Assembly: GCA_041658785.1 (NCBI GenBank)
Contig: JBAZZL010000004.1
Location: 1-59,899 of the forward strand
DNA from: Patescibacteria group bacterium
GTDB lineage: Bacteria > Patescibacteriota > Patescibacteriia > Magasanikbacterales > UBA922
Reading direction: 5' to 3'
DNA: 59,899 bases
In this document: positions 1,478-31,604 of the stretch, piece after piece
How the letters are laid out: every line of letters starts with the position of its first letter
Numbering within the stretch: the first letter of the stretch is position 1
Notes under the pieces: generated by a model
Told to the model about the DNA's origin: nothing
What the model saw: the letters and a program-made list of their open reading frames with translations, nothing else
Database searches by the model: none
Translations under genes and position numbers: made by a program

Positions 1478-2497
1478 TTATTCCATGTCTTTACTATATG
1501 CGCCAGATCTAGCCGCGCTTGTCAATTTCGCGCGTTTAAGAAAAACCGCCTGCGCTGTTGCGTTATTTGTTTCCTCTCCGCCCCATGCTTTCAAGGCTGA
1601 TTGCTGCAATGCGCGTCCATATGAAAATGAAAGTTGCCAAAAGCCATTGTCTTTCATTTGGTTTATCGCGTTCAGATTCTCGCAAGCCTGCGCTTCGCTT
1701 TGGCCGCCAGAAAGAAAGACAATGCCGGGTACTTCTGCCGGTACAGATTCTTTGAGGCATTCAACGGTCAGCTGGGCTATTTTTTTTGCATCTGCCTGTA
1801 CCGGACAATCCATTCCCGAAATAATCATATTTGACTTAAGCAAAATGCCATCAAGCGCCACTCTTTGCATTTTTAATTCTGCAAATACTTTGTGCAGAGT
1901 CTTTTTGGTAACTTCGTAACAAACTTCAACAGTGTGGACGCCATCCATCAACACTTCAGGTTCAACAATAGGCACGAGCCCCGCTTCTTGGGCCAGCGCG
2001 GCATAGCGCGCCAAGGCATGCGCGTTGACATTGATGCAGTAATCCGTTGGCAGGCCGGAATTTTCATCAATCTTTATCACGGCGCGCCATTTGGCAAACC
2101 TAGCTCCCAATTCAGAATACTCTTTGAACCGTTCACGCAATCCATCCAAGCCTTCTGTTATTTTCTCATCTGTAGAAAAAACCAACGGTTTGGCGCCAGC
2201 ATCAACTTTGATGCCCGGAAAAACTTCTTCCTTTCTCATAACTTCTACAAATGCCCGGCTATCATTTGTTTTTTGGCGAATAGTTTCATCATAGAGGATA
2301 ATACCGCTAATATATTCTCCAATGCCCGCGCTTGTAAAAAGCATCTGGCGATAGCGTCTGCGGTTTTCTTCTGTATTTTCTGCGCCGGCAGAAGCCAAAC
2401 GTTTGCCCGCAGTACCAGTGCTTTCGTCTGCCGCGAGAATTCCTCTCCCTGGCGAAACGAGCTGTCTGGCAATTTCGTTTAGTGATTGTTTGTCCAT
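1478..2497 (-). CDS. fba: fructose-bisphosphate aldolase, class I
   Basis: 339 aa. GILAADESTGTAGKRL near the N-terminus is the class I FBA signature, and the length fits. Confidence 0.88.
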   Translation of the reverse strand: MDKQSLNEIARQLVSPGRGILAADESTGTAGKRLASAGAENTEENRRRYRQMLFTSAGIGEYISGIILYDETIRQKTNDSRAFVEVMRKEEVFPGIKVDAGAKPLVFSTDEKITEGLDGLRERFKEYSELGARFAKWRAVIKIDENSGLPTDYCINVNAHALARYAALAQEAGLVPIVEPEVLMDGVHTVEVCYEVTKKTLHKVFAELKMQRVALDGILLKSNMIISGMDCPVQADAKKIAQLTVECLKESVPAEVPGIVFLSGGQSEAQACENLNAINQMKDNGFWQLSFSYGRALQQSALKAWGGEETNNATAQAVFLKRAKLTSAARSGAYSKDME

Positions 2498-2548
2498 ATT
2501 TTATTAAATTATTTATCAGATTGAATGCGGGCTATTTCTACATTTCAA

Positions 2549-2640
2549 TTTATTTCGTATTTCGTATTTCTTATTTCGTATTTCTTATTTCGTATTTCTT
2601 ATTTCGTATTTCTTATTTCGTATTTCTTATTTCGTATTTC
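2549..2640. repeat. tandem array of a 14-nt unit tatttcgtatttct (~6 copies)
   Basis: Read directly: tatttcgtatttcgtatttct then tatttcgtatttct repeated head to tail up to 2640. It fills the fba-pfk spacer. Confidence 0.95.
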
Positions 2641-2641
2641 A

Positions 2642-3856
2642 TTATTTATTTAAAATTTTGCCAACCACTGGCGCATCCAACATCTCCACCGGCTCTATTT
2701 CGCCAATCAGCGGTCTGGCATAATTTTTAAACTCATCAGCCACCATATTATTGCCTTTGATAAAATTGTCCGGCATCGTCTTTGTCTTGCCGGCCACTTC
2801 TTTTAGATCTACCAATTCATAATCTACCGCATAGTCGCCGGCGCGCCGAATCACGACAGAGCCATCTACATCTTCCCAAACAGCATACTGAACCGCGCGC
2901 TCCCCAACCTCACGCGCTTCATTCTTGTCAACTTCGCTCACACAGCCCAAAAATGATCTCTGCAAATATCCCAATGTATCTGCTCTGACTCTCTTAATTT
3001 TGGTTTTTGTTCTTATCAAATCAGCCAGAAGATCGCCCAGTGCGCCGTTGCCTGAAAGCTGGACATTGCCATGCGGATCATGTTCTTTTTCTTTTTGCAA
3101 ACCGGTGGCGATTGGCTCCCCGAAATCATCGTGAATTCCTTCAGACGCGGCCACGATACAACGGCCGTATTTATTATAAACTTCTTCCACATCGTTAACA
3201 AACTGGCCAGTGGAAAATATTCTCTCTGGCACATAGACCAGATGCGGACCGTCGTCAGACAGTCTTTTTGCCATTATTGAGGCTGCTGTCAAAAATCCCG
3301 CTTGCCTTCCCATCACCACTCCAATATATACTCCTGGCAAAGCCCGGTTATCCATATTTACCCCGGCAAAAGCTTTGGCAATAAATCTGCCGGCCGAACC
3401 ATAACCAGGGCAATGATCTGTTACTGCCAAATCATTATCAATTGTTTTTGGAATATGGATTGTTCTCAATTGATAATTTTGTTTTTCTGCCTGTTCATTT
3501 ACAATCCGGCAAGTATCGGCAGAATCATTGCCGCCAATGTAGAAAAAATAACCAATGCCATGATGCTTCATTGTTTCAAACATTTTCCGGCAATATTCTT
3601 CATCAGGCTTATCGCGGGTAGTACCCAAAGCAGACCCGGGTGTTGCGGCAACTTGTTCCAAATTGCTAGTAGAAGCTTCTGTCAAATCCAAAAAATCTTC
3701 TTTGATGATTCCTGATACGCCGTGCCTGGCGCCATAAATGCGTTCTATTTCAGGAAACTTTCTGGACTCCAAAATTATGCCAACTAAACTTTGGTTTATT
3801 ACTGCGGTCGGACCTCCCCCCTGCGCCACCAGCGCTTTGGCAATTAGTTTTGACAT
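2642..3856 (-). CDS. pfk: 6-phosphofructokinase family protein (long form, possibly PPi-dependent)
   Basis: 404 aa. N-terminal GGGPTAVINQSLVGII and IGGNDSADT match PFK nucleotide/sugar-phosphate motifs. ATP versus PPi specificity cannot be decided by eye. Confidence 0.8.
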   Translation of the reverse strand: MSKLIAKALVAQGGGPTAVINQSLVGIILESRKFPEIERIYGARHGVSGIIKEDFLDLTEASTSNLEQVAATPGSALGTTRDKPDEEYCRKMFETMKHHGIGYFFYIGGNDSADTCRIVNEQAEKQNYQLRTIHIPKTIDNDLAVTDHCPGYGSAGRFIAKAFAGVNMDNRALPGVYIGVVMGRQAGFLTAASIMAKRLSDDGPHLVYVPERIFSTGQFVNDVEEVYNKYGRCIVAASEGIHDDFGEPIATGLQKEKEHDPHGNVQLSGNGALGDLLADLIRTKTKIKRVRADTLGYLQRSFLGCVSEVDKNEAREVGERAVQYAVWEDVDGSVVIRRAGDYAVDYELVDLKEVAGKTKTMPDNFIKGNNMVADEFKNYARPLIGEIEPVEMLDAPVVGKILNK

Positions 3857-3923
3857 AATGATGTTTAATCAATACTATAGCAAACAAAAAACATCCCTGC
3901 AAGTAATATATTTTTGTAAATTT

Positions 3924-4019
3924 ACCCCGCCAGAGAACATCCAGCGGCTTGCCGCGGTGTCTGGCAACTCAATAACGAGTGCGGGGTCCAAATGCCCCGC
4001 GAGAGTTCTCTGGCGGGGT
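3924..4019. other. long-range inverted repeat (15-bp stem accccgccagagaac / gttctctggcggggt) enclosing an inner hairpin
   Basis: Arms at 3924-3938 and 4005-4019, inner hairpin gcgggg..ccccgc at 3981-4000. It starts immediately after the stop codon of the 4020..4280 gene. No U-tract follows. Confidence 0.7.
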
Positions 4020-4280
4020 TTACTCTTCCAGACGGCCTACTGCCTGTTCCCAAAGCTCATCTTGCGTTTGCCCAAAATCTATTTCATCGGCATGATCGTT
4101 GTACCACTGTTCAAAGGCAACGCGCAACTCGTCCGGATCGGTCGCGCTCTCAAATGAATCTTCAAGCAAGGCATATTTTTCTTGATGGGATATTGCCATT
4201 TCCTCTTCCATTTCTTCAAACAACTGCTGGACATGTTCAAGCACGGTTTTTTTTATTTGATCAAAATATTCGTCCTCCAT
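4020..4280 (-). CDS. hypothetical small highly acidic protein (86 aa)
   Basis: Clean ORF with its own promoter-like element upstream and a hairpin downstream. No recognisable family. Confidence 0.55.
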   Translation of the reverse strand: MEDEYFDQIKKTVLEHVQQLFEEMEEEMAISHQEKYALLEDSFESATDPDELRVAFEQWYNDHADEIDFGQTQDELWEQAVGRLEE

Positions 4281-4420
4281 AGTAAATCAATGGTATGAAC
4301 CACAGAACAAGCTCTGGACTCTTGTTCCGTAGCAAGCTGTGGGGAATAAAAACACCTTCTTGTCCGGCGCAGCCCACAGGCGGAGACGGATTAAATTTTA
4401 GTTAGTATTTTTTCTCAAAA

Positions 4421-4448
4421 ACTATATCATATTAAAAAAAGTTTGCAA
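4421..4448 (-). promoter_or_regulatory. sigma70-like promoter (TTGCAA, 16-nt spacer, TGaTATAGT)
   Basis: Minus strand reads cTTGCAAactttttttaatatgaTATAGT: -35 at 4443-4448, -10 at 4421-4426, with a TG extended -10. Confidence 0.5.
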
Positions 4449-4491
4449 GAGGCTGTTGCTTTCATACAAAAGGATACTCAGAATATAATAT

Positions 4492-4522
4492 AAAAAAAGT
4501 CAAGACCCATTTGGTCTTGACT
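4492..4522 (-). terminator. rho-independent terminator after 5S rRNA
   Basis: Minus strand reads agtcaagaccaaatgggtcttgact followed by ttttttt. Confidence 0.85.
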
Positions 4523-4547
4523 GTTAATAACTAAAAAGACGCAGAAA

Positions 4548-4653
4548 CTGGGCGCTTACCTACTCTTCCCTTGCGAGTACCATCGGCGCTGATGGGCTTA
4601 ACTGCTGTGTTCGAGATGGGAACAGGTGTACCCCCATCGCAAGAAGCACCCAG
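4548..4653 (-). rRNA. rrf: 5S rRNA
   Basis: The reverse complement reads CUGGGUGC...CCCAUCUCGAACACAGCAGUUAAGCCCAUCAGCGCCGAUGGUACU...GCGCCCAG. It has a helix I closing stem and conserved loop sequences. Ends are +/- a few nt. Confidence 0.9.
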
Positions 4654-4853
4654 ATTCTGAGTCTTTTTGAATTTGAAAATGTTAATTGTTAACTTTCAAA
4701 AGTTAACTGCTATTGTAAAGCACAACTCTGTGTTTCCGCAGTAATGCTTGATCTATTAGTACACCTTGGCTCAATCCTTTGCAGGACTTACACCTAGTGC
4801 CTATCAACGTCCTAGTCTCGGACGGATCTCAAATGAATGGTAATCTTGGGAAC

Positions 4854-4891
<38 letters not shown>

Positions 4892-5009
4892 AAACGTCGC
4901 TACCCGGCGATGTTCTTGGCAGAACAGCCGGCACACAAGAGGTTTGTCCATCTCGGTCCTCTCGTACTAGAGATGAATTCCCTCACCATTCGACGCCCAC
5001 AGCAGATAG

Positions 5010-5051
<42 letters not shown>

Positions 5052-5052
5052 T

Positions 5053-5091
<39 letters not shown>

Positions 5092-5092
5092 C

Positions 5093-5133
<41 letters not shown>

Positions 5134-5677
5134 GCGCCGTCGCTGTGGACGCTTGGGCGCGATCAGCCTGTTATCCCCAGAGTAGCTTTTATCTGTTGAG
5201 CTTCCGCGGTCCTATGTCCCACGGTCGGATCACTAACTTCTACTTTCGTAACTGCGCGGGCTATTACCCTTGCAGTAAAGCTGGCTTTTGCGTTTGCGCG
5301 TCCACTCCGATTTCCATCCGGAGCAAGCCAACCTTTGTAAACGCCTCCGTTACAATTTAGGAGGCAACCGCCCCAGTTAAACTACCCATCAGATACTGTC
5401 TCTATAGCCTCTATAAAGGCCACGGATTAGATATGTCACAGCACAAGGGTGGTATCTCACTGTTCCCCGACTTGCGCCGGGGTCCCACCTATGCTGAACA
5501 TGTGAAGCAACATATCAATATCAAATTGTAGTAAAGCTTCATGGGGTCTTTTCGTCTAGCTGCGGGAATGTCGCATCTTCACGACAATTGCATTTTCGCC
5601 GAGTACATGGTTAAGACAGTCTCCATATCGTTATGCCATTCGTGCGGGTCGGAACTCACCCGACAAGGAATTTCGCT

Positions 5678-6499
5678 TGAATAGTTGTTAATAATATTTA
5701 TTATTAACGTTCTAGACTGTTAACTAGAACCTGCATATCGCTATGCAGACCGAACCATTTCTTCATCCCGACAATGTCGGGAGGTTGGCGTATGGTCTCT
5801 GAGGATTTTTATCAAACTCTCTCTTGGTTTTTTTCTATTCATTGTTGACGCAATTTTAGCTATTTTCACCATTCCTTTGTTCGTTAAATGTTCCTGTCTT
5901 TGCATGCATATAACACACTCAACAAACTTTTCAAAATCTTCTTGCTTTGTAGTTTTTAATTTATACTTTTTAAAAAAAGGAATTATTATGTCAATTAAAT
6001 CTTCCCTTTTTCTAACTACAAATCTATAAAGATTTTCCTTATGATTATCATATCTGCGGTTGGGGTATATATAGCCGACACCAAAGTGTTTCTTCAAAAC
6101 TTCTAAAGAAGCTCTGCTTTTTTCACCTTGAGTAACTGCGAATTCATGAAAAGGTTGGTAGCCTGTTTTGTACCCTCTGCGTATTCTTGTTTTCTCTTTT
6201 CTGTCGGATTGTTTTATAAATCCAACAGAGAAGCATCCCTCGCCATCTACAAAACCTATTACCCAACCAAGTTCGATAAATCTTTCCTGCTGATTTTCTG
6301 CGCTAGTCATATTGTTACTAGTTTAATTAAACAAGGAATAATTATACCTTGTGATATTTTAACATAGTAATGCTAGATACACCAGATTTTTCAGCATATA
6401 GCCAACTATTTTAGGACATCTTATTCATTGCTGAATAAGTAGGCAACGATCTATCAATAACCGTCCCAGTCCTTGTTGAGTGGAGAATTCCACTCAACA
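5678..6499 (-). mobile_element. intervening sequence (intron-like) in 23S rRNA carrying a homing-endonuclease ORF
   Basis: The conserved exon string ...cggcggtaactataaccgtcctaaggt (rc of 6500-6527) is separated from its universal continuation agcgaaattccttgtcggg (rc of 5659-5677) by 822 nt. Confidence 0.85.
5741..6310 (-). CDS. LAGLIDADG homing endonuclease
   Basis: 189 aa. LGWVIGFVDGEGCFSV is a canonical LAGLIDADG motif. The ORF lies wholly inside the 23S intervening sequence. Confidence 0.9.
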   Translation of the reverse strand: MTSAENQQERFIELGWVIGFVDGEGCFSVGFIKQSDRKEKTRIRRGYKTGYQPFHEFAVTQGEKSRASLEVLKKHFGVGYIYPNRRYDNHKENLYRFVVRKREDLIDIIIPFFKKYKLKTTKQEDFEKFVECVICMQRQEHLTNKGMVKIAKIASTMNRKKPRESLIKILRDHTPTSRHCRDEEMVRSA

Positions 6500-7388
6500 A
6501 CCTTAGGACGGTTATAGTTACCGCCGGCGTTCATCAGCGCTTCAGTCGCAAGCTTCTCCCGACTAAGTCGGGATAACCCACTTCTTTAACGTTCTGACAC
6601 TGGCCAGGCATCACCCCCTATACTTCCTCTTGCGAGTTAGCAGAGAGCTGTGTTTTTGGTAAACAGTCGCATGGAGTCTTTAGCTGCGTCCCCCGTCTAC
6701 GCTTTCCGCTTCGCTTCAAGCTGCGCCGGACAAGCTGTACTTAATAAATACGAGCTTGCTCGGCGTAGTTCTTCACGAAATGAAGAGTGTAGACGAGGGA
6801 AGGCCTTATCCCGAAGTTACGGCCGCTTTTTTGCCGAGTTCCTAAACCATGTTTCTCTCGTGCGCCTTGGTCTTCTCGACCTACTCACCTGTGTTGGTTT
6901 GTGGTACGGTTAGATATAGCCTAACGACATTGTACTTTTCTTGGCACCTCTCCTGCATGACTTGACCGCCTCCGAAGATTTGATCTCATCCCCGAACGGG
7001 GAACGTATAGCCATACAACGCTCATACATTTAAAATGCGAATACAATGCCAAACTATACCAAGTGCAGGAATATTAACCTGCTCTTCCATCGGCTACCCT
7101 TGTTGAACAAGGTTTACCTTAGGACCGACTAACCCAGGGACGATTCACGTTGCCCTGGAAACCTTGAGTTTTCGGCGTGACGGACTTTCACCGTCATTTT
7201 TGCTACTTGTGCCTGCATTCTCTCTTCCCAATGCTCCACCGGCCCTTACGGGTCCGACTTCACTGCGTTGGGAATGCTCCTCTACCGTTCCGCATTACTG
7301 CGGAACCCGCAACTTCGGTATATCACTTGAGCCCCGGTACATTTTCAGCGCGAAGACTCTTGACCAGTGAGCTATTACGCTATCTTTA

Positions 7389-7426
<38 letters not shown>

Positions 7427-7814
7427 AGAATCAACACCACTTTTAACACTTAGTGATAATTTAGGGACCTTAGTTTGCGATCTGGGCTGTTTCCCTTTTG
7501 ACTATGAAGCTTAGCCCTCACAGTCTGACTTGCATACTATTAATCTCTGGTATTCGGAGTTTGATTGAAAGGGGTATCCCGAAGGACCCCGCTCTCATCC
7601 AGTGCTCTACCCCCAGAGGAAACATATACAGCTAGCCCTAAAGCTATTTCGAGGAGAACCAGCTATTACCGAGTTCGATTAGAATTTCTCCGCTATCCAC
7701 AACTCATCCCCGCGTGTTACACGGCGCGTGGGTTCGGTCCTCCCCCAACTTTTACGTTGGGTTCAACCTGGCCATGGATTGCTCACCCGGTTTCGGGTCT
7801 ATTCCGACAGACTA

Positions 7815-7903
7815 GTCTACGCTACGCTACGCCTAGTAAACGTTTTTATTATTATACTTACCAAAACTATAATAATAGTTTACGCGGCGAAGCGTAGCGA
7901 AGA
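7815..7903 (-). other. 23S expansion hairpin
   Basis: gtctacgctacgctacgcc ... ggcgaagcgtagcgaagac pair around an AT-rich tip (ttattattata / tataataata). Confidence 0.7.
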
Positions 7904-8007
7904 CGCGCCCTGTTAAGACTTGATTTCTCTATGGCTTCTCCCCAGAGGGGATTAACCAAGCCAGTCGGAATAACTCGCAGGCTCATTCTTCAATAGGAAC
8001 ACCATAA

Positions 8008-8120
8008 CCGATGCTGCGCATCGGAAATTCCAAAATACAAATCCCAAAATACAAACAATATTTATAAAAGTGTTTGTTTCTTGTTTCTCGTAATTTGAAA
8101 CTTCCGGTGCGAAGCACCGG
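8008..8120 (-). other. 23S expansion segment with AT-word repeats
   Basis: Small hairpins ccgatgctgcgcatcgg and ccggtgcgaagcaccgg flank ccaaaatacaaatcccaaaatacaaac / gtttgtttcttgtttc. Confidence 0.65.
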
Positions 8121-8551
8121 CGTTGGCTCTATGTAAGCATACGGTTTCAGATACTATTTCATCCCCCTTCCGGGGTGCTTTTCACCTTTCCCTCATGGTA
8201 CTCGTTCACTATCGATCACTGTTTATATTTAGTCTTAGGCCATAGTCGGCCCAGGTTCAGACGGGATTTCACGTGGCCCGTCCTACTCAGGAATATCTGC
8301 AATAATATATAAAATATTTCGCCTACGGGACTATCACCCGCTATGGTGCTCCGTTCCAGGAGTCTTTGACTATACTATATATATTACTTCCAGCTCAACA
8401 GGTAGCTGACGCAAATATCCTACAACACCTATACTGCAACGGCCTGTCCTTTAAGAATGATGTCAAAATAAGTCCGAAGACTGATCTATTCATCACCCAA
8501 CACAGCATAGGTTTGGACTGATCCGCTTTCGCTCGCCACTACTAACGGAAT

Positions 8552-8624
8552 CGAAACCACGAATCTCTATCACGAATCAACACGAATATAAAATTCGTGC
8601 AAATTCGTGTAAAGAATTCGTGGT
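8552..8624 (-). other. 23S expansion hairpin built from cacgaat / attcgtg words
   Basis: It is inserted between the conserved strings cgctcgccactact..ggaatc and gttagtttctttcttttcctc. It contains ccacgaat, cacgaat x2, then attcgtg x3. Confidence 0.75.
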
Positions 8625-8721
8625 GTTAGTTTCTTTCTTTTCCTCTGGCTACTGAGATGTTTCACTTCACCAGGTCTTCTCCATACACCTATGTATTCAG
8701 TGTATGGTACCAGTGTTTCAC

Positions 8722-8802
8722 GCTAGAAACCAATTTCAAAATTCAGAATTCAATCCGCCAGTTGGCGGAAGGATTTTGGATTTAAGATTTTGGATTTCCA
8801 GT
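8722..8802 (-). other. 23S expansion inside the 5'-domain hairpin closed by ccagtgtttcac / gtgaaacactgg
   Basis: ~80 extra nt with aatttcaaaattcagaattcaat, a ccgccagttggcgg hairpin and ggattttggatttaagattttggattt. Confidence 0.7.
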
Positions 8803-9154
8803 GTGAAACACTGGTGGGTTCCCCCATTCGGAAATTCCCGGGTCAAAGGTTGCTTGGGACCTCACCGAGACTTATCGCACCCTGCAACGTCCTTCATAGT
8901 TAAACAGTGTCAAGGCATCCACCGTACGCCCTTAATTTGCTTACTGCGAAAACACACAATTGTGCTTTCTTGCCACGCCTCCCGATTCAATCGGGATTAA
9001 CGTGGAAATGCTTTTAACATTCTCGTTGAATTGTAATGAACCTGCTCATTTTTCTTATACTACCCAATCTTACACACGAATTAACACCAAAATATATTCG
9101 TGTTAATTCGTGAAAAAAATTCGTGGTTATAATTCGTGTCAAAGATTCGCGGTT

Positions 9155-14125: not shown

Positions 14126-14248
14126 GAAATCCGCACTGTCCGAGCGCGAAATTCGTCCGCCGAACCGCGGACTCATTTCGCTACTCCACATAAAATAATC
14201 AAACGCGTAAGTCATGATTACTTTAAATTTACTTCCATCATTATTCCC

Positions 14249-14313
14249 TATTTCTAATTTCCAATTTCCAATTTCTAATTTCCAATTTCTAATTTCTAAT
14301 TTCCAATTTCCAA
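14249..14313. repeat. tandem 8-nt word array (atttccaa / atttctaa)
   Basis: tatttctaatttccaatttccaatttctaatttccaatttctaatttctaatttccaatttccaat, read directly in the NYN-pnp spacer. Confidence 0.95.
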
Positions 14314-14316
14314 TCA

Positions 14317-15217: not shown

Positions 15218-15389
15218 ACATTGCATATTACCGGCCGATAGCAAGTCTGTTGATAAACCGACTATGGTCAGACCAGCCAAAGGCTGGATTTATTAATCAG
15301 GAAGAGTATATCAGATGATAAAAATAATGTCAAGAATACCGAATCATTATTTCCTTTTTTGCTTCTCCTCGCATATAGTTAAGTCTAAG

Positions 15390-16691
15390 TTAATAAATAA
15401 ACATCGCGTCTCCAAAACTATAAAATCTATAATTTTGAGAAACGGCCTCTTGGTAACATTGTAGCACAAACCGCCTATTGCCGGCAAGCGCGCTTACTAA
15501 CATCAAAAGGGTTGATTTTGGGAGGTGAAAATTGGTGATTAACGCATCAACAATTTGAAAATTGAAACCCGGGCGGATAAAAATATCTATTTCTCCAGTA
15601 TAACTCTGTAATTTGTAATTTGTAACTGGTAATTTTCCTAATTTCAAATTTCTAATTTCAAATTTCCTATCTTCATTTATTTCAACTTTATCTCTACTTA
15701 TTATTTCATTGTTACATTGTTCCATTGTTAGATTGTTAGACAATCGGCCAACCCCTTTCCTCTTTCCTCTTTCCTCTTTCCCCAAAGCCGCGATTCCTTC
15801 CAATGTCCTCACCGTCGTCGTTCCCACCGCCACCACTCGTCTCCCCTCGCTCTTTGCCCGATTGATCTTCTCCGCGTTTTCTTCGGTCAATTCAACCCAC
15901 TCGCTATGCATCACATGATCCTCTAATCTTTCGGACTTAACCGGCAAAAATGTTCCCAAACCGACATGCAAAGTTACTTCGGCAAACTCAACTCCTTTTT
16001 TCTTTAACTTCTCAATCAACTCTGGAGTAAAATGGAATCCGGCGGTCGGCGCCGCGACTGATCCTTCTCTATCATCACGCGCGTAAACCGTTTGGTAACT
16101 CTCAAGTTTAAGATTTTTATCTCCTTTAATATATGGGGGCACAGGGACAACGCCATACTTGTTCGCTTTTTTTCTGACCGTTTCTTCATCATCCGGAAAT
16201 TGCACCAAAATACTTCCGTCCGGTTCTTTTATTACCACCTCGCAATAAAACACCTCGTCCAACTCCCTCCCCTTTTTAAGGGGAGGGCGGGGGTAGGGTT
16301 GTTCGCCATCTCCAAATACCACCCTCATCCCGGGCTTGACGTGCTTGCCAGGCCTTGCCAATACTTTCCATACGCCCGGATTTCCCATCGGCCGCACGAG
16401 CAATACTTCTACCGGTTTATCCTCGCCGCGCAAAACTCGTCCATCATTCGAAACCAACGACCCAAACAAACGCGCTTTGAAAACCTTTGAATTATTCCAC
16501 ACCAACAAATCGCCCTTATCCAAATAATCAACAATATTATAAAAATGACAGTGTTCAATCGCCTCTTTCCTCTTTCCCCTTTCCGCCTTTCCTCTATCAA
16601 CAATCATCAGCCGCGAATGGTCGCGCAGACGCGTTGGTTTTTGGGCAATAAGCTCTGCTGGAAGGTGGTAATTAAAATCAGCGGTTTTCAT
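15390..16691 (-). CDS. queA: S-adenosylmethionine:tRNA ribosyltransferase-isomerase, with repeat-derived in-frame insertions
   Basis: MKTADFNYHLPAELIAQKP at the start and GDAMFIY at the end. 433 aa, against ~340-350 aa recalled for typical QueA. Confidence 0.9.
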   Translation of the reverse strand: MKTADFNYHLPAELIAQKPTRLRDHSRLMIVDRGKAERGKRKEAIEHCHFYNIVDYLDKGDLLVWNNSKVFKARLFGSLVSNDGRVLRGEDKPVEVLLVRPMGNPGVWKVLARPGKHVKPGMRVVFGDGEQPYPRPPLKKGRELDEVFYCEVVIKEPDGSILVQFPDDEETVRKKANKYGVVPVPPYIKGDKNLKLESYQTVYARDDREGSVAAPTAGFHFTPELIEKLKKKGVEFAEVTLHVGLGTFLPVKSERLEDHVMHSEWVELTEENAEKINRAKSEGRRVVAVGTTTVRTLEGIAALGKEERGKRKGVGRLSNNLTMEQCNNEIISRDKVEINEDRKFEIRNLKLGKLPVTNYKLQSYTGEIDIFIRPGFNFQIVDALITNFHLPKSTLLMLVSALAGNRRFVLQCYQEAVSQNYRFYSFGDAMFIY

Positions 16692-19600
16692 ATCCCCTCC
16701 GTGCTGGAAGCCGTGCTTGACGCGGTCTCAAACGTCAGAAGATTCCTCGGCCACCAAGTAGAATGCGCGATGCGGATAAAATGCTCTGGCGTCAGATTTT
16801 GCGCCGTAACCATTGGCGCTCCCACAGCTTCAATCCCGATATCCATTTCTTCAAACCGGGTATTGTCAATGGCGAGTGATCCGCGATCAAGGGCAATGCC
16901 TTTCACGGTCCGGCTGACGGTTTTGGGAACGCTCCACCGAATCAGCGAGTTTTTGATCGCCATATCCGATTGATGCAGCTGGATCATGGCATTAGAACGG
17001 TAAGCGTCTTCAAACGTAACCTGATCAAGAAAAACCGTAGCTTGATCGGCCCAGAGCATCGCGCTGTCGTTTAGAGGCAGATCCCCGCGATTGCCGTTTT
17101 TCAGCCTGGTGTAAGCAAGGTCAACAGTTCCGCCCGGACGGACCACCAACGACCCCCACCAAGCATAGCCTGATCCATTTACGATAGTAACTGGGGCGTT
17201 GGCCGCGCCGCGGCTTTTGAACGTCCCTCTAACTTCGATGTTCATATGCCCGGCTATTCGCAAAACGACTCCGGGGTCAAGAGTAAGAGTTGAACCGGAC
17301 GGAACAGTAATTCCGCTGAAGCGATATGGATAAGGGCCGGCAAGAGTGGTGGATGAAGCAAAGGTCGTGTTAATTAATGAGAGCTGATCCGCGGCATTGC
17401 CCTCCAACAACAGCCCTGTAAATGAGGGCGCGACCTCGTGCGAATAAAGCGGACCGTCAGGGTTCATCAAATTTTTGAACTGGACATTATTTAAGTCAGC
17501 GGAAAGAAAACCGGCTCGGCCGGCGCTATCCAGCCCAACCCCGAGCCAGCCGCCGAGAATTTGCACGCGGGAAAGAGCCAATGCGGATCGATTCCCGTCC
17601 GAAATATCGGCCCAGATAACCGCATTGTACTCTTTATCCCGGGTGTGTTGGTAATTGTTTTCAAACACCGTGTCTTCAATCACGGCCGTGCTGCCGACAA
17701 TTCTAATTACTTGAGCAATCTCGCGCATGCCGTAAACCCAGCCTGTGCCTTTTTCAAAAAAATATCCTCCATAGCGGAAGCGAGTATTTTTGATCTCGGC
17801 TCGACCTCCGTTTTTAATCTCAATGCGCGACCAGTCGCCCGCGGCCGGCGTGGATGACGGCGAATAAACCGACATGCCGGAGAGCGGGAGTCCAAAACCA
17901 AAAGCGCGCGCCGAGGTAAAAACAACCGGTTCCTCGGCCGTGCCATTGATCTTGAGCAGACCTAGCACTTTAAGCGCGGACGAGCGATCAATGCCGATAA
18001 TCGTAACGCCGGGATCAATCTCCAGCGTCATCCCGTTGGGAATTTCAGTAATGTAGTCAAGAATATACGGGCTCTGCTCTTTGGTCAGCCGCAGGGTGTT
18101 GGCAGAAGAAAACCAATCGCTATAATAAAAGGAAAGAACGCGCAACAGCGTAAAGCCGCGGTTCGCGCGCCCGGGACTGCCGTAAAGTTCGCCGCAATTG
18201 TTGGTGCGGCCAAAAGGAGTGAGACGATCCGCTGTTTCCCAATTTGATCGGAAAGAACCGGGAAGCGACGGATCTTTTCTGGCCATAGGTTGGCGCCGAG
18301 CGCCATCTCCGCCAGCATCGGTCCGGCCAGCCGACCAGCCAGAGATAAATGAAACTTCGTCAACCGTCTCTCCTTGAGAATTGACTAAAGCAAAGCGAGC
18401 GCCGGCATCAGGGATGTCCAATGACTCAGTGGTAAGATTGATTGGCAAACCAGTTAGCGCGTCCTTTCGGGCAAAACGACGGACTAAAAGATAATAACCG
18501 TCTGGTTCAATCACGCCAGAAAGCGAAATTGACGCGTTGCCGACAAAAAGACGCCAGCCTGAAAGATCAACCAGCGCGGCTGTATTGTTTTTGAGTTCAA
18601 TCCATTCATGCTTGGCGCATTCTCCGCCGCCGGTCCCCATCCAGGCGGCCTCATTGATGACAACATTTTTTCGCCAGTCGGAAATGATCTCATGACGATT
18701 GCCGGAGCTGTCGCTCCACACCGAAACATTGCCGGCCGCGTCAATCGCCCGGGCGCGAAACCGGTAACGTTTGAGGCGCAAGGCCGCGAACGAATGGCGG
18801 GTGGAGGTGGCGCGAGATAGAAGAGGAAAAAATGTTTCAACAGACGAAGCCAACAATCGCGTTCCGCGTTTTTCCGCACCATGCCACGCGCCAAGGCCGG
18901 CCAATGAACCCTCGCCATCCTCCATTGCCATTTCCAGATCATATCCCAAAATGCCGCTGCCGCTGTCTGTACTCTCCCAGGCGACGTCAATCGTAGGAGT
19001 GGCCGAAGTAAAATCGGTTTGCGTAAGCGCGAGGCTTGGCGCGGCGGGCGGAATAGTGTCAAGAAAAATTTCCAAACTTGTCGTCGCGGTTGATCGCCCC
19101 GCCGCGCTTTGTCCGCTGACTTCAAAACGATTGGCCCCTTCAATCAACGATACCGCTGTCTCCCAAACAGTAGACGAGGAAAAAACAGCCGCCGCCTCTG
19201 CTCCGTTCACCCAGATTGCGGTTACTGTCTCATTCTTTGTTCCGGCGATAGTCGTGATCGGCGTGTTAACGTAAATCAATGAAGAAGACGGACTGGTCAG
19301 CGCAATGACTGGCGGTTCGGCGTTAATTGTTGGCTGTTCATTAATCATTGATCTTTGGTCACTCTCCGTTGTCCCTGATGATGAACCACCGCCCGACCCA
19401 GAGCCCCCGGCCGGCCCGCTGAACAAAATGAAAATCGGTTCAACCGCGCGATTGACCATATCTTTAATCTCTCCGCCCAGCTGGCGCGCTTCTTCGCCCA
19501 CACGGCGGACCATTTCTCGAGCCTGATCCGTGAGCGATGGCGGCGCAACGGCCTGCGGCGGCGCAGTGGTTGCTGGGGTCAACGAAGAGGATAACACATC

Positions 19601-24244: not shown

Positions 24245-24310
24245 ATTTGCGTAGTTTAAAAAATAATGTTAGGCGTATTATAGCGCTGCGCGGCAAGAAA
24301 GTCAAACACG

Positions 24311-24358
24311 ATTATTGTTACATTGTTAAATTGTTACATTGCTACATGGCTACATTGT
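24311..24358. repeat. word array attgttacattg-type (left flank of four-helix-bundle gene)
   Basis: attattgttacattgttaaattgttacattgctacatggctacattg. Confidence 0.9.
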
Positions 24359-24362
24359 TTGT

Positions 24363-24743
24363 CTAAAACTTTAATTTTGCGTTAGTAAAAGCAATGAGGC
24401 CATTAACTTCTTTGGGGAGTTTGTTTAATTCTCCCATAATATGGTCGTACTGTTTTTGACTAATCAACCCGCGTACCTTTGCTTTCAATGTCCAATCACA
24501 GCATTCTTTAACTGAACCGTAAGTATAACGATAAAATTTTATCTTATCTTTTTTACTGTATCTGCCAAAACCTTCGGCAATGTTCGCAGAATTGGAATCA
24601 ACCGCTCTTACCCACTGTTTGCCGATCGTATCTTTGGCAAAAAAATCCCACTTTATTACAATATCCCAAACATAATTAGACAAATGAAAAGCCATCTTAT
24701 ACGCGCCAATATCATTGAGTTGAAGATATTTTTGCTCTGACAT
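24363..24743 (-). CDS. four-helix-bundle protein (23S rRNA intervening-sequence protein family)
   Basis: FKMAFHLSNYVWDIV...RAVDSNSANIAEGFGRYSKKDKIKFYRYTYGSVKEC matches the family pattern recalled from memory. Confidence 0.75.
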   Translation of the reverse strand: MSEQKYLQLNDIGAYKMAFHLSNYVWDIVIKWDFFAKDTIGKQWVRAVDSNSANIAEGFGRYSKKDKIKFYRYTYGSVKECCDWTLKAKVRGLISQKQYDHIMGELNKLPKEVNGLIAFTNAKLKF

Positions 24744-24747
24744 AAAA

Positions 24748-24787
24748 AACAATTTAACAATTTAGCAATGTAACAATTTAGCAATAA
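24748..24787. repeat. inverted copy of the same word array (right flank)
   Basis: aacaatttaacaatttagcaatgtaacaatttagcaat. caatgtaacaat is the reverse complement of attgttacattg. Confidence 0.9.
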
Positions 24788-26863
24788 TCAAAGCTCTTCA
24801 ATCCCCTTCAAAAAACTTCTTCTTGGCTTGTCGCCATCCAACGGTTCATACCTAACTCCTTCGTCATTATTATCCAAATCAAACACATTACTCTCTCCGC
24901 CAAACCCGCTCTCGCTCACCAAATCTCTGTTAATTTCTTCTAAAAACATGCTCGGCCCCTGCGAGAAACTGGAATAACCGCCGGACAAGGGATAGGTGAG
25001 ATAGAGATATTTTTTCGCCCGCGTCAGGGCCACGTAAAACAACCTCCGCTCTTCTTCTATTCCGTCTAATTCTTTTATCGCCCGCTCGTTGGGAAACTGA
25101 CCGGCGGATAAATTTAAAATAAAAACCGCTTCCCATTCCAGCCCTTTGGCCTGATGAACCGTGGAGAGAATTATTTTTTCATTGTCCGACAGAGGCGAGG
25201 CGTGCCTCGCCTCTACGGACTCGCGGCCATAATTCTCCTGCATCGTGGCTTCGGCGAGAAACGCGGACAGATCCGACTGGCGCTCGGCAAAAAATGCTAA
25301 CTGTTCCAAATCCTGCAACCGCTCGCGATAATCCTGATATTCGTATTCCAGATATTCGGCGTATTTTGATTCCAACACCGCGCGAATCAATTCCGCCGGC
25401 GCGCCATTGGTTTTGAACATGGTTTCGTAAATCTGCAAAAAATCATTCCACCCGACCTGGGCGCGGGGCGGCAAATCAATCGCCACCCCCTCTCCTTTTA
25501 GGAGAGGGGTCAGGGGGTGAGGTGTCGGACTACCACCAACCGAACGAACCGCGTCTATAATCCTCTCCGCCGTCGCCGCCCCAATCCCCTGTTGCATATT
25601 CAACACCCGCCCCCACGCGATCGCGTCGTTTTTGTTGTTAAAAATCCGCAAATACGCCAAAACATCTTTGATGTGCGCCCGTTCAAAAAATCTGATCCCG
25701 CCGCGATAGTCATACGCGATGCCCCGCTTGGTCAATTCCATTTCCAAGGCCTGCGAATGAAAAGCGGCGCGGAACAAAACTGACATTTCTTTCAGATGCA
25801 CACCTTCGTCGCGCAATTCCAAAATTCTTTCGGCAATAAACTCGGCCTCTTCATTTTGATCCGCGAACGAACGCACTTCCGGTTTGGTAAATCTCTCTTT
25901 CATGCTTTTCAGATTTTTATCGTACTGCTTTACATTGTTGGAAATAACATCATTGGCCAAATTTAAAATATCCGGCGTTGATCGGTAATTTGTTTCTAAT
26001 CGAAAAATTTTAGCTCCCGGATATTCTTTTTCAAACGCTAAAATATTCTGAATATCGGCCGCGCGAAACGAATAAATGCTCTGGGCATCGTCGCCAACCA
26101 CCAAAATATTTTTATGTTTAGAAGCCAGCAAGCGAATAATTGACGCCTGCACCCGATTAGTATCCTGATATTCGTCAACCAGAATATATTGAAACTGATC
26201 CGCCGCTTTAGTTCGGACTTTTTCCGACTTGGCCAAAAGCAAATGCAGATTAACGAGCAGGTCGTCAAAATCCATCACATTGCCCGCGCGCTTGCGCTCG
26301 TCATAGTCCTTGGCAATCCGGCCAATGGTTTCGCCAATGTCTAACCAATTCGGATATTTCAATTCCAATACCGCCTCAATCGTCTCCTCGGCATTGCGCG
26401 CGTAACTGACAATGGACTGAATCACGCCAGCCGAAGGAAATCGCCGCTGTTTCCGGTCAATTCCTTCTTGTTTCAAACACAATTTAATCAAATCCAGACT
26501 GTCAGCGCTGTCCAAAACGGAAAAATTATTTTTGTATTGCAAAAACGGCGCGTATTTTTTTAATATCCGGTACGCGATGTGATGAAACGTGCCGGACCAG
26601 GGCAGTAGAGGCGCAAAATCTTGCGCCTCTACTGCCCTGGCCAATCGCCCCACCCGTTCAATCATCTCTCGCGCCGCTTTATTGGTGAACGTTACCAGCA
26701 AGATATTTTTTGGATCAACGCCTTTTTCAATCAAATATGCCACGCGGTAAGTGATGGCGCGCGTCTTGCCCGACCCGGCGCCGGCCAAAACTAAACACGG
26801 GCCGGCGGCGTTTTGGACGACGTTCAATTGTTCGGGGTTGAGTTCTTTGTGATAGTCAATCAT
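24788..26863 (-). CDS. UvrD/PcrA/Rep-family ATP-dependent DNA helicase
   Basis: Walker A AGAGSGKT, TFTNKAAREM, DEYQDTN, VGDDAQSIYSFR and TVHQAKGLEW motifs. 691 aa. Confidence 0.92.
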   Translation of the reverse strand: MIDYHKELNPEQLNVVQNAAGPCLVLAGAGSGKTRAITYRVAYLIEKGVDPKNILLVTFTNKAAREMIERVGRLARAVEAQDFAPLLPWSGTFHHIAYRILKKYAPFLQYKNNFSVLDSADSLDLIKLCLKQEGIDRKQRRFPSAGVIQSIVSYARNAEETIEAVLELKYPNWLDIGETIGRIAKDYDERKRAGNVMDFDDLLVNLHLLLAKSEKVRTKAADQFQYILVDEYQDTNRVQASIIRLLASKHKNILVVGDDAQSIYSFRAADIQNILAFEKEYPGAKIFRLETNYRSTPDILNLANDVISNNVKQYDKNLKSMKERFTKPEVRSFADQNEEAEFIAERILELRDEGVHLKEMSVLFRAAFHSQALEMELTKRGIAYDYRGGIRFFERAHIKDVLAYLRIFNNKNDAIAWGRVLNMQQGIGAATAERIIDAVRSVGGSPTPHPLTPLLKGEGVAIDLPPRAQVGWNDFLQIYETMFKTNGAPAELIRAVLESKYAEYLEYEYQDYRERLQDLEQLAFFAERQSDLSAFLAEATMQENYGRESVEARHASPLSDNEKIILSTVHQAKGLEWEAVFILNLSAGQFPNERAIKELDGIEEERRLFYVALTRAKKYLYLTYPLSGGYSSFSQGPSMFLEEINRDLVSESGFGGESNVFDLDNNDEGVRYEPLDGDKPRRSFLKGIEEL

Positions 26864-27646: not shown

Positions 27647-28462
27647 TTATTCCAGAACCAAAACCACTCTCCTGCCGTTCTTCACGTCCCCGCTGTTCCA
27701 ATCATGAATCGCGTTCATCAAAACATCGTACTTGTACCTGAAATCCGCGCCAAACTGCGTACCCGGATCGTTGGTAATGAATTCATCTTCATCATAACCC
27801 TTGATAATCAAAGCGTGATAAACCGGCCCGCCATTTCTAAAATGCGGATTGGGCAAAACCTTGCCATCGGCCACCGCCAAAACCGGCTGTCCGTTTGCCA
27901 GGTAATTTTTAATCTGCTCCACCGTGGGGTCAGCAATTATTTCAGATTTCAGATTTAAAATTTCGGATTTTTCCAAAATATAACTGTCAACTAGTTTTTT
28001 AACGTTTTCCATAGAAATACTTGGACCCAAACCCTGCTCTTTTTCCCAAGCAACCATTTTCAGCAATTCATCCTTTGCCGACAATGGACTTAAACCGTAA
28101 CTTTTGTAATAAGCGTCTAACATTAAAACCGCGGCCTCCTCGCACGCATCCTGCCACGGCTCTTCCCAATTTTTTTCCGGCGCTTGGGAGGTAAATGGCA
28201 CGGCTAAGTTCATTTGTGCCGGCAAGGTCTCGTCGGCAATTTCACCTAACCCTTTGACACCAACCCTTTCCCTATTTTGATTATCCTGCTTTATTTCCAA
28301 AATAGACAACTGCGGTATCTGTGTATTATAAATCTGCGGTTCATTCCTTGACCAAACGAAAACTGTCCCAGATACAAAAAAAACAAATAATCCTAAACAA
28401 ATTAAATTAAATTTTTTATAATCCATATTCTCAAATTTGAAATCAACGCTCTCTCTCTGCAT
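27647..28462 (-). CDS. membrane-anchored C39-like cysteine peptidase family protein
   Basis: N-terminal TM helix. VPFTSQAPEKNWEEPWQDACEEAAVLM and HALIIKGYDEDEFITNDPG resemble the Peptidase_C39-like (Cys...His) arrangement. Assigned from memory. Confidence 0.55.
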   Translation of the reverse strand: MQRESVDFKFENMDYKKFNLICLGLFVFFVSGTVFVWSRNEPQIYNTQIPQLSILEIKQDNQNRERVGVKGLGEIADETLPAQMNLAVPFTSQAPEKNWEEPWQDACEEAAVLMLDAYYKSYGLSPLSAKDELLKMVAWEKEQGLGPSISMENVKKLVDSYILEKSEILNLKSEIIADPTVEQIKNYLANGQPVLAVADGKVLPNPHFRNGGPVYHALIIKGYDEDEFITNDPGTQFGADFRYKYDVLMNAIHDWNSGDVKNGRRVVLVLE

Positions 28463-28530: not shown

Positions 28531-29778
28531 ATGTTTTTTGATATAACCCACAAATCATCCGACTGTCTCGCTCGTACTGGCATCATCCACACCGCGCACG
28601 GCGATATTGAGACGCCGGTTTTTATGCCGGTCGGCACGCAAGCGACAGTGAAAGCGCTGGATTCGGATGACCTCAAAAATCTTGACGCGCCAGTCATTCT
28701 CGCGAATACTTATCATTTGCACTTGCGGCCGGGCGAAAATTTAATTGCCGAACTTGGCGGACTGCATAAATTTATGAATTGGGACCGGCCGATTCTTACT
28801 GACTCCGGCGGTTTTCAAGTATTTTCACTCCAACACAAAAACATAACAACACCACAACACAACAACAATCAAAAATCTGAAATCATAAATCTGTCCCGCC
28901 GCAGCGGGACCCCGCTCGCTGCGGGGAAATCTGAAAGTGAAAGTGAACACAGCAATCTTGTAAAAATAGACAACGACGGCGTCACCTTTCACTCCCACAT
29001 CGACGGCTCCACTCACCGCTTCACCCCCGAATCCGCCATAGAAATTCAACACCAACTTGGCGCGGACATTATCATGGCCTTTGACGAATGTACGCCGGAT
29101 AATGTTTCAGAAGCAAAAGCCCGCGAGGCAATGGAACGGACGCATCAGTGGGCAGATCGTTCACTCACTTATCACCAACAAAATCTTAAATCTTCAATCT
29201 TCAATCTTCAATCACTCTTCGGCATCATCCAAGGCGCCAACTATCAAAAGCTTCGTGAAGAGTCTGCCCGCTTCATCTCCTCGCTAAACTTTGACGGCAT
29301 CGCCATCGGCGGCGAATCAGTCGGGTTTAATATGGAGGCGACTAAACAAATTCTGGACTGGGTGAACCCGATTATTCCGGAAGATAAACCCCATTACACC
29401 ATGGGCGTGGGACATTCGCCGTTGGATTTATTTGCCGTCGTGGAGCGCGGCGTGGATATGTTTGACTGCGTCTCGCCAACGAGGATGGCAAGAAACGGCG
29501 CGCTCTTTGTCCATCCAACGGTATCAAAAAAACACCGGATTGACATTACCAAATCAGAATTTAAAAAAGACGAACAGCCGATTGATCCGTCCTGCTCTTG
29601 TTCAACTTGTAAAAAATATTCCCGCGCCTATCTGAACCATCTTTTTAGCGCCAAAGAACTACTCGCTTACCGCTTGGCAACGATTCATAATGTGCATTTC
29701 TTTTTGGATTTGATGCGAGAGATTAGAAAAGCGATTAAAGAAGATAGTTTTTTGGAATTGAAGAGAAGCTGGGAATGA
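28531..29778 (+). CDS. tgt: queuine tRNA-ribosyltransferase with two repeat-derived in-frame insertions
   Basis: ARTGIIHTAHGDIETPVFMPVGT, TDSGGFQVFS, and the zinc site CSCSTCKKYSRAYLNHL. 415 aa. Confidence 0.92.
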   Translation: MFFDITHKSSDCLARTGIIHTAHGDIETPVFMPVGTQATVKALDSDDLKNLDAPVILANTYHLHLRPGENLIAELGGLHKFMNWDRPILTDSGGFQVFSLQHKNITTPQHNNNQKSEIINLSRRSGTPLAAGKSESESEHSNLVKIDNDGVTFHSHIDGSTHRFTPESAIEIQHQLGADIIMAFDECTPDNVSEAKAREAMERTHQWADRSLTYHQQNLKSSIFNLQSLFGIIQGANYQKLREESARFISSLNFDGIAIGGESVGFNMEATKQILDWVNPIIPEDKPHYTMGVGHSPLDLFAVVERGVDMFDCVSPTRMARNGALFVHPTVSKKHRIDITKSEFKKDEQPIDPSCSCSTCKKYSRAYLNHLFSAKELLAYRLATIHNVHFFLDLMREIRKAIKEDSFLELKRSWE

Positions 29779-29823
29779 TGGCTGGCGGTAGTCCGACAAG
29801 TAATCCTTCTGTTTATTAGCGCT

Positions 29824-29990
29824 GGCGGTAGCCCGACAACTCTATCTCTGTCTCTTTCCCTTATGAAGGGAAAGAGAACCCGTTAAGTAAGTTTAACTCT
29901 AATCCAATCGTAAGCCCCTTTCCCTTCGTACTTGTCCCGTCGGATACGGGAAGGGAAAGGGGTTGGGGATAGGGTTGTCGGACTACCACC
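29824..29990 (-). mobile_element. MITE-like foldback element, family 1, copy A (inverted relative to B and C)
   Basis: Termini are ggcggtagcccgacaac ... gttgtcggactaccacc. Internal hairpins are ctctttcccttatgaagggaaagag and cccctttcccttc..gaagggaaagggg. A solo terminus ggcggtagtccgacaag sits at 29784-29800. Confidence 0.8.
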
Positions 29991-31426: not shown

Positions 31427-31446
31427 AATTTATCGCCCACTGCATA

Positions 31447-31604
31447 AATTCACCTAATTAACCTAATTGTCTAATTCACCCATTCGGCTTCGCTCAGGGC
31501 AAGCTCTAATAAAATATCAAATGTCTAATAACAAAATCTCTCTTGGGGTTTAGTTATTAGAAATTTTTTAGGTGAATTAGGTGAATTAGAAATTAGGTGA
31601 ATTT
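31447..31604. repeat. foldback: cacctaatt-word arm, 88-nt core, inverted aattaggtg-word arm
   Basis: aattcacctaattaacctaattgtctaattcaccc (31447-31481) pairs with aggtgaattaggtgaattagaaattaggtgaattt (31570-31604). Confidence 0.9.

Follow-up and report, generated by a model that had tools for sequence, protein, structure and literature searches.

Several described repeat systems bear on repeat DNA carried within protein-coding genes. Rickettsia palindromic elements (RPEs; Ogata et al. 2000) are palindromic repeats of ~100-150 bp with a conserved peptide per family, and their in-frame fusion with many metabolic genes is documented, as summarised in PMC10969869. The dispersed heptamers of cyanobacteria and Xanthomonas (STRR-type; Rehm et al. 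2015, PMC4692102) are G-rich, in some cases form G-quadruplexes, and show under-representation within coding DNA. About half of the tandem repeats of Borgs (Schoelmerich et al. 2023, PMC9879509) lie within open reading frames (ORFs), where their unit lengths are all divisible by three and they encode perfect amino-acid repeats. The present analysis concerns positions 1 to 59,899 of contig JBAZZL010000004.1 (assembly GCA_041658785.1), hereafter the window, and within it queA, the gene for tRNA preQ1(34) S-adenosylmethionine ribosyltransferase-isomerase (15390-16691, minus strand). Genomes of the Candidate Phyla Radiation (CPR)/Patescibacteria are tiny and streamlined, and repeat DNA within their core enzymes is therefore unexpected. 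With a probability of roughly 0.7, dispersed repeat DNA of the organism's own genome has lodged at three permissive loops of queA, where it would be translated as a tolerated loop and persist as neutral or selfish sequence.

The queA ORF encodes 433 aa, and its sequence is exactly the one quoted in an earlier interpretation made from the letters alone (the sequence-only reading), which had called it intact. PF02547 covers the protein end to end, from residue 4 to 432 (profile positions 2-322 of 322, E 7e-119, Pfam profile search). The solved QueA structures 1vky, 1wdi and 1yy3 are matched at E 1e-89 to 3e-75 (HMMER), and the top Foldseek matches of an AlphaFold2 (AF2) model are QueA 1yy3 and 1vky, with E ~6e-29. 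An alignment of 120 Magasanikbacteria QueA proteins has 70 invariant columns, every one of which is kept here, with no stop or frameshift. The closest proteins are QueA of Candidatus Magasanikbacteria, at 53-65% identity (BLASTP) and 63-77% over aligned columns. On these alignments queA reads as an intact gene for a conserved, full-length QueA, which is presumably functional.

The largest departure from known QueA lies at the third of three loops. In the HMMER alignment to Thermotoga maritima QueA (1vky), residues 1-307 match chain residues 13-277 and residues 362-432 match 277-346, leaving ~54 residues without a counterpart at a site where 1vky has zero residues. The comparison with solved structures thus identifies an insertion, as the sequence-only reading had proposed. 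This site-3 insert spans residues G304-Q362 (15606-15782, minus strand, 177 nt, from the HMMER gap against 1vky and the codon map) and is a mosaic of tandem arrays. It is in frame as proposed, whereas the proposed size of ~190 nt gives way to a repeat-bearing stretch of 177 nt and a net excess of 54 codons (162 nt), the loop holding 64 aa against a basal 10 in the 120 relatives. None of the distant orthologues compared, namely the QueA structures and the queA loci among the matches listed, carries the segment.

Tandem Repeats Finder (TRF) resolves periods of 7, 8 and 11 nt within the insert, in agreement with the proposed composite of several repeat types. All units are quoted on the coding (minus) strand. 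The purine heptamer GGAAAGA is repeated 3.9 times at 15755-15781 with 100% match, encoding KEERGKRK, and the octamer TAACAATG four times at 15707-15738, encoding NNLTMEQCNN. An imperfect period-11 repeat (x2.2, 15676-15699, TRF score 34) forms a spacer between arrays; it is weak and may be of chance origin. Two further heptamer arrays follow, GAAATTW x3.9 at 15640-15666 (KFEIRNLKL) and AAATTAC x4.1 at 15607-15635 (LPVTNYKLQ). The array peptides do not repeat, because neither 7 nor 8 nt is a whole number of codons. In composition the insert looks foreign to the gene: its GC content is 30%, with 48% A on the sense strand, and the rest of queA has 46% GC.

The last two arrays had been taken for a single EIRN/TNYKLQ module. 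The sequence is present as described, and it resolves into a pair of neighbouring heptamer arrays; after rotation, a single base separates their units (GAAATTA versus CAAATTA). The two form a weak inverted pair, 71-76% complementary, and are at most a decayed inverted pair. A hairpin formed by the module was considered and rejected at this complementarity, given a fold z of -1.7 for the queA copy and +0.5 for a copy in carB, neither of which folds strongly.

The unit families of the insert recur in the window. A pattern search places the GGAAAGA array only at 15755-15781 and 16562-16584. The octamer word of TAACAATG is found at 24314-24359 and 32434-32455, both anticipated in the sequence-only reading, and also at 24748-24785; its queA array is grouped in repeat family D3 with 24306-24367 and 32419-32464. 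The GAAATTW family occurs again at 14243-14314 and in carB at 36293-36332.

The reading frame argues for translation of the insert. The 177-nt stretch has 0 stops in the sense frame and 1-10 in each of the other five, and an open sense frame has P ~0.001 in composition-matched shuffles. Since an open frame and a length in whole codons would be superfluous in a segment that is removed, we infer that the insert is translated rather than excised. Excision of the segment as an intron or intein, translational bypass, a pseudogene, or an assembly artefact would each leave it unexpressed or unreal. Intervening sequences are a known feature of CPR genomes and repeats a classic cause of misassembly, and the window itself has a 23S rRNA gene (4736-8947, minus) of 4212 nt against a 2925-nt model, with a LAGLIDADG ORF inside (5741-6310). 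Against an intron, however, stand the absence of any Rfam match across 15300-16800, even at E up to 1, and an RNA fold z of 0.12 for the insert, which indicates no significant structure. The 54 extra residues are far below intein size, and Pfam shows the QueA domain only. A pseudogene would not be expected to retain every invariant QueA residue, and an artefact would not be expected to recur identically in three assemblies. The whole group of explanations is extremely improbable, and the intein, intron and riboswitch-like readings were rejected on PF02547 alone being present, the lack of an Rfam match, the z of 0.12 and the open-frame P of 0.001.

Three assemblies from different samples attest the locus. 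The 90%-identity cluster of the window QueA has two further members from other assemblies, with 1-2 residue differences, all outside the insert. The contigs are 99.94-99.97% identical over 12-21 kb (window 5390-26691) with zero indels, and a search for the frameshift or stop that would have marked a pseudogene found none in these independent assemblies. The identical insert is therefore not a misassembly. On the timescale separating the three assemblies, copy number does not vary at seven or more arrays; a phase-variable contingency locus was accordingly ruled out.

The AF2 model built on the 120-sequence alignment has a mean predicted local distance difference test (pLDDT) of 80.5, a predicted template modelling score (pTM) of 0.82 and a confident core; it was used in place of a poor model from a 26-sequence alignment (pLDDT 61). 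The pLDDT falls below 50 for insert residues 314-355 and is ~55 for the site-2 block, which fits a loop excursion from the fold. The insert is predicted to be a low-complexity loop rich in K, E and N and is probably disordered.

Two smaller inserts in queA are also made of repeat DNA. Site 1 (16562-16595, minus; TRF and pattern search) is a degenerate GGAAAGR heptamer array encoding GKAERGKRKEA, the second ERGKRK-coding purine array that had been reported. It adds a net 7 codons (21 nt), equal to three heptamers, so that the loop has 12 aa in the window against 5 aa in 99 of the 120 relatives. Site 2 (16251-16304, minus; alignment to MITE ends) is a hairpin-end fragment of a miniature inverted-repeat transposable element (MITE), encoding EQPYPRPPLKKGRELDEV, with a net gain of 18 codons and a loop of 21 aa against 3 aa in 103 of 120 relatives. 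Its hairpin plus G-box (16262-16305) aligns to MITE ends at 34815-34895, 42065-42140, 29815-29895 and 25475-25545, bearing out the earlier identification of a MITE half-copy. A strict regular expression for the MITE hairpins found one copy only, and alignment was used instead. This 54-nt fragment is a partial copy and the sole part of queA that resembles a palindromic, peptide-coding element of ~100-150 bp.

In-frame repeat carriage is not confined to queA; the sequences compared here point to a genome-wide and clade-wide habit. Within the window, arrays of 7- or 8-nt units lie in frame in tgt (28831-28893, plus, QHKNITTPQHNNNQKSEIINL; a second array at 29182-29213, NLKSSIFNLQS), carA (34002-34092, plus, a 31-aa peptide), carB (36293-36363, plus, GAAATTN followed by an AAGTTAC array, EKLEIRNWKLETGNKLQVTSYKLQ), a pyrK-like gene (octamer array, 45351-45403, plus, QHINTPTHQHLNPSTLKH), a C39 peptidase gene (27939-27970, KSEILNLKSEI) and yebC (31879-31913, ESQKSKVQSEKS). 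In uvrD, an in-frame MITE-end fragment of repeat families D7/D8 (25487-25537, minus) encodes PTPHPLTPLLKGEG, a sister fragment of PYPRPPLKKGRE at queA site 2. Together with the three sites of queA and the two of tgt, these are unrelated and intact genes. The two-array composite of queA reappears in carB with its order unchanged, the AAGTTAC x4.6 array of carB at 36332-36363 aligning with the AAATTAC array of queA. Repeat families D1-D3 and D7-D10 have several copies in the window, and the units of the queA insert belong to multi-copy families. About half of the strong arrays fall in the ~15% of the window that is non-coding on a rough gene map, an excess that fits purifying selection against most coding insertions. 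queA is a striking single case, the longest of 120, of in-frame repeat carriage in essential genes across the clade.

The arrays exceed what composition would produce. Counting periods of 7, 8 and 10 and three or more copies, the window has 20 arrays, whereas 30 dinucleotide-preserving shuffles yielded 0. Their density is 3.3 per 10 kb, ~16x the 0.21 per 10 kb of 77 queA loci that carry no Magasanikbacteria label; these 77 come from the 80 queA loci among the matches listed, the other three being Magasanikbacteria. Two of the 77 (L004 and L007), of uncertain affiliation, reach ~3 arrays per 10 kb. Particular words are also concentrated in the clade, for which 156 kb of DNA including the window was counted. 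For ACAAT at period 8 in three copies, the window has 3 occurrences, a further 96 kb from other Magasanikbacteria also has 3, and 1.28 Mb from other bacteria has 0; for GAAATT at period 7 in three copies the corresponding counts are 2, 2 and 0. On these counts some unit families appear to be both specific to the clade and shared within it. The array words are not exclusive to it in a very large collection of viral contigs, and are therefore not diagnostic alone.

The same loop varies widely among relatives. Measured from G299 to Y364, the site-3 loop has 10 to 64 residues among the 120 Magasanikbacteria QueA proteins, the window having the longest, and it is enlarged in more than half of them. 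In its nearest relatives, P0002 and P0042, the loop is 15-16 residues long against 64, which marks the insert as lineage-specific and is the allele difference that the sequence-only reading had suggested looking for. Loop contents are unrelated as protein and recognisable as translated repeats, either of array type (ISNFQFPNNITIEQYNNE, QISDFRFQNNE, NNKIDRDRDRTEINGD) or of hairpin type (LPLSGGARGGL...TSPGRGG). Three relatives have arrays of related units in the loop DNA: CAATTTC x4.4 then AACAATAT x3.8 in one, ATTTCAG then GACAATAG and AAAGATCA in another, and GGAAATT x4 then TTACCAG x3.6 in the third. The TAACAATG unit family is found in the same QueA loop of P0023 and P0033. In a neighbour-joining tree from which the variable loops were left out, insert types are scattered, and the window's nearest relatives are short at sites 3 and 2. 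By this distribution the site-3 loop is a recurrent place of gain and loss. A protein-database search with the 60-aa insert alone returned no match, one candidate only having been scored.

Such variation might instead reflect selection, with the insert conferring a new QueA property such as a K/R-rich arm that binds tRNA or a partner. QueA acts on tRNA, the site-3 loop is expanded in more than half of the relatives, basic ERGKRK-type peptides occur twice in the window QueA, and the reading frame is strictly maintained. Yet the loop contents of relatives are unrelated and follow DNA repeat families rather than protein features, the insert is absent from close relatives, the same peptides occur in the unrelated enzymes encoded by carB, carA and uvrD, and the insert is low in complexity and in model confidence. 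An adaptive loop is thus very unlikely.

A recent change at the site is preserved in two relatives. The QueA proteins P0022 and P0026 differ by 3 residues outside an 11-residue gap at the site-3 loop, and in the ~100 nt of DNA surrounding a clean 33-nt indel, ACCATTTTATGGATAAGAGATACGCGATAGGCG (L253 1240-1340 versus L254 1312-1445), they do not differ at all. The indel consists of 12 nt plus three GATANNN heptamers, which abut a fourth unit in the flank that is present in the short allele. Array-bearing segments are thus gained or lost as a block at this very loop, in steps divisible by three.

The mode of origin suggested by these results begins with arrays that would be primarily intergenic, as a REP/MITE-like repeat class forming hairpins of inverted pairs. 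Array-bearing segments would occasionally be gained or lost en bloc inside genes, and survival would be limited to events that hit a tolerant surface loop, run in the direction without stops and add a whole number of codons. The insert would then be transcribed and translated into a K/E/N-rich, low-complexity loop that QueA tolerates, and would ride in the coding sequence as neutral or selfish DNA in the manner of RPEs. The DNA might enter by transposition, by template switching or recombination from one array to another, or by slippage of several units at once from seeds already in the loop. Slippage by a single unit would be lethal in an essential gene, because a unit of 7 or 8 nt shifts the frame; en-bloc change, or change in three-unit steps, would therefore be favoured, and coding arrays would be stable.

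Some observations weigh against lodged repeat DNA as the explanation. No transposase, target-site duplication or terminal signature was found for the queA inserts, and the 33-nt indel has no target-site duplication beyond 1 nt of flank homology. Pfam scans of part of the ORFs of the 60-kb window, several of which have no Pfam match, found no transposase, and no RAYT was seen in the window, again with part of the ORFs scanned. The inserts are thus at most putative mobile elements. Translation of the insert and activity of the enzyme are both inferred; low pLDDT in an insert that lacks homologues is no proof of disorder; and the three assemblies may draw on one population. Two further points fit growth in place, in which the arrays arose within queA by replication slippage or tandem duplication from short loop seeds and not by import. 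The short loop of the nearest relative, P0002, already holds two AAGTTAC-like units, with KLQSY codons that resemble the end of the window array, and site 1 is longer by exactly three heptamers (+21 nt) next to the purine seed AGAGGAAAG. The 33-nt indel also ends in three GATANNN units adjoining the fourth unit of the short allele. The seed units, together with the length gained at site 1, make a degree of growth in place plausible. As a full account, growth in place is nevertheless unlikely: single-unit slippage would shift the frame of an essential gene, leaving three-unit steps alone as viable; the unit families and the two-array composite recur in carB, carA, intergenic DNA and other genomes; the 33-nt indel includes 12 nt outside the array; and the three assemblies show no copy-number variation.

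Lodged repeat DNA remains the preferred explanation, and a bolder extension of it, possible though doubtful, is that Magasanikbacteria, perhaps also their phages, harbour an undescribed repeat element. Its arrays would comprise ~four units of 7-10 nt, pair as hairpins in spacers, and be installed and removed en bloc by a family-specific process that repeatedly hits the QueA and TGT loops. Clade-specific unit families are common to genomes only ~60-75% identical in QueA, and identical module types occur at one QueA loop in distant branches, while an allele with 3 residue differences lacks them; a phage contig (L210) also has five such arrays in its spacers. A dedicated array-installing process, if real, would give a steady supply of new disordered loops over the whole reduced proteome.

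Compared with RPEs, the queA inserts are alike in belonging to dispersed repeat families that sit in frame in many unrelated housekeeping genes, which are left intact with the frame open, presumably in both cases at positions that the fold can accommodate. The closest parallel is offered by the hairpin-MITE fragments in queA site 2, uvrD and the TGT gene of a related genome (L090), which encodes the same peptide twice. Unlike RPEs, the main queA insert is pieced together from tandem arrays 27-32 nt long, with units of 7 or 8 nt, is non-palindromic (z 0.12), and comes from another phylum. It resembles RPEs functionally and is not a member of the RPE family, and similarity in sequence is not to be expected.

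Small dispersed repeats of Nostoc were reportedly the subject of Elhai et al. 2008 (cited in PMC3116915). The window arrays share with the heptamers of Xanthomonas and Nostoc the 7-nt units, the genome-wide spread, the mostly intergenic location and the ~four units per array. They differ in having A/T- or purine-rich units of many sequences, repeatedly in frame within essential genes. Like Borg repeats, they are pervasive, lineage-specific and A-rich on the coding strand, with about half in unbroken ORFs, where they would encode low-complexity and probably disordered segments. Unlike Borg repeats, they have units of 7, 8 and 11 nt and non-repeating peptides, with the frame kept by total length alone; the arrays are short (~4 units), and their unit families recur between loci and genomes. 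The intergenic copies recall REP/REPIN and MITE elements (PMC3116915, PMC10969869) in being short, dispersed and palindromic, with stable hairpins between co-directional genes, although the hairpin arms here are themselves tandem arrays. Contingency loci likewise carry short tandem repeats within coding sequence; the window arrays, by contrast, lie in mid-gene loops of core metabolic and translation-related enzymes, where a single-unit change would inactivate rather than switch. The novelty here is the in-frame carriage of non-triplet, short-period arrays, in-frame selfish repeats of RPE type being already known. The literature searched, on heptamer or tandem repeats of Patescibacteria or Magasanikbacteria and on MITEs of CPR, yielded no account of inserts like these, which is no proof of absence.

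If lodged repeat DNA is the correct explanation, reduced genomes could regularly gain new protein loops from selfish or neutral repeats, and the Rickettsia paradigm would extend to another phylum and another kind of repeat. It would also mean that non-triplet arrays can be carried in frame, with stop-free orientation and total length divisible by three as the rules of survival, and that caution is due in CPR annotation and phylogenomics, where a marker-protein loop of variable length may stem from repeat DNA and carry no informative sequence. Natural presence and absence alleles make the loops of QueA and TGT a test bed for the insertion tolerance of enzymes.

TGT shows the same kind of variation in relatives. 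Three related genomes have different inserts in the same two TGT loops, one of them with the same MITE-encoded peptide twice. Two of the loci, both in related Magasanikbacteria, lie at L090 2216-3613 (minus) and L089 7867-9096 (minus), with repeat-derived inserts at the loops used in the window TGT; the L090 protein (465 aa) has the peptide QPLRPDMSRDTSPSEGEDIPSL.RRGG at two different loops. uvrD of the window (24788-26863, minus) and of L089 (10152-12224) differ by several short inserts. One of these in L089, KGGSAFGG, resembles the QueA site-1 peptides KGGALFGG and RGGSWLGG of other relatives, hinting at further small repeat families.

Intergenic array pairs fold strongly, with z of -11.1 at 43150-43275, -5.1 at 45655-45750 and -5.1 at 9050-9140, a fold that is gone from the coding copies in queA and carB. 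Inverted pairs of arrays with 9- or 10-nt units lie between co-directional genes at 43157-43269, 45665-45744, 9055-9132 and 31446-31607, and these hairpins may act as terminators or RNA-processing sites. Relatives show a like layout, and in two of them the queA array unit is the unit of a spacer hairpin in the same genome. The A-rich strand of an array is the sense strand in every gene examined except at tgt 29182-29213, and most intergenic arrays follow the strand of neighbouring genes. Gene orientation in the window flips at ~28.5 kb, between the C39 peptidase gene (minus) and tgt (plus).

The MITE family of the window is ~170-200 nt long, with inverted ends TGGCGGTAGCCCGACAAC and internal GC-rich hairpins. 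Copies at 29823-29990, 34727-34889, 41941-42129, 44211-44413 and 44604-44804 sit in spacers after tgt and inside the pyrimidine gene cluster, two of them in tandem upstream of the pyrK-like gene. Full copies have inverted ends (I1/I3), and the queA inserts do not. A gene for a four-helix-bundle protein of PF05635, the 23S rRNA intervening sequence protein family (24363-24752, minus), is flanked by inverted octamer arrays ATTGTTAC (24314-24359, 24748-24785). Gene and arrays are both missing from the nearest relative's syntenic spacer between uvrD and ndk (L089 12224-13011), so that the two may form a mobile cassette. The PF05635 family presumably includes the Avd proteins of diversity-generating retroelements.

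The window is ordinary chromosome of an uncultured Candidatus Magasanikbacteria (Patescibacteria/CPR) bacterium. Pfam evidence comes from scans of part of its ORFs, together with precomputed Pfam labels on the loci of related strains. Matches include GAPDH, phosphofructokinase, PNPase-type domains, ribosomal protein S15 and nucleoside diphosphate kinase, as well as UvrD helicase, TGT, RuvC and YebC. Genes of pyrimidine-pathway type encode the small and large chains of carbamoyl-phosphate synthase, two aspartate/ornithine carbamoyltransferases, PyrI, an amidohydrolase, dihydroorotate dehydrogenase, the pyrK-like protein, a phosphoribosyltransferase and OMP decarboxylase. An IPP transferase (miaA type), a radical-SAM UPF0004/TRAM protein (miaB type), class I and class II tRNA synthetases and a type II/IV secretion ATPase are also present, and the RNA genes comprise 5S rRNA, 23S rRNA and one tRNA. 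Short-period arrays lie within the annotated 23S rRNA span at 8025-8055, 8591-8613 and 8735-8797, and an inverted pair (8548-8590 and 9093-9135) brackets the 5' end of that gene. Just upstream of carA, a perfect 36-nt direct duplication (33458-33529) has a small hairpin, CTCGGCTAAAGCCGAG, in each copy. Outside the window, the IMG/VR phage contig 3300043113_000086 (L210), which has tail tube and cement protein genes, carries five GAAATTN x4 arrays in the region 2314-8050, placed in spacers between structural genes, and 2.9 copies of a 78-nt unit in which heptamer arrays are paired in inverted orientation.

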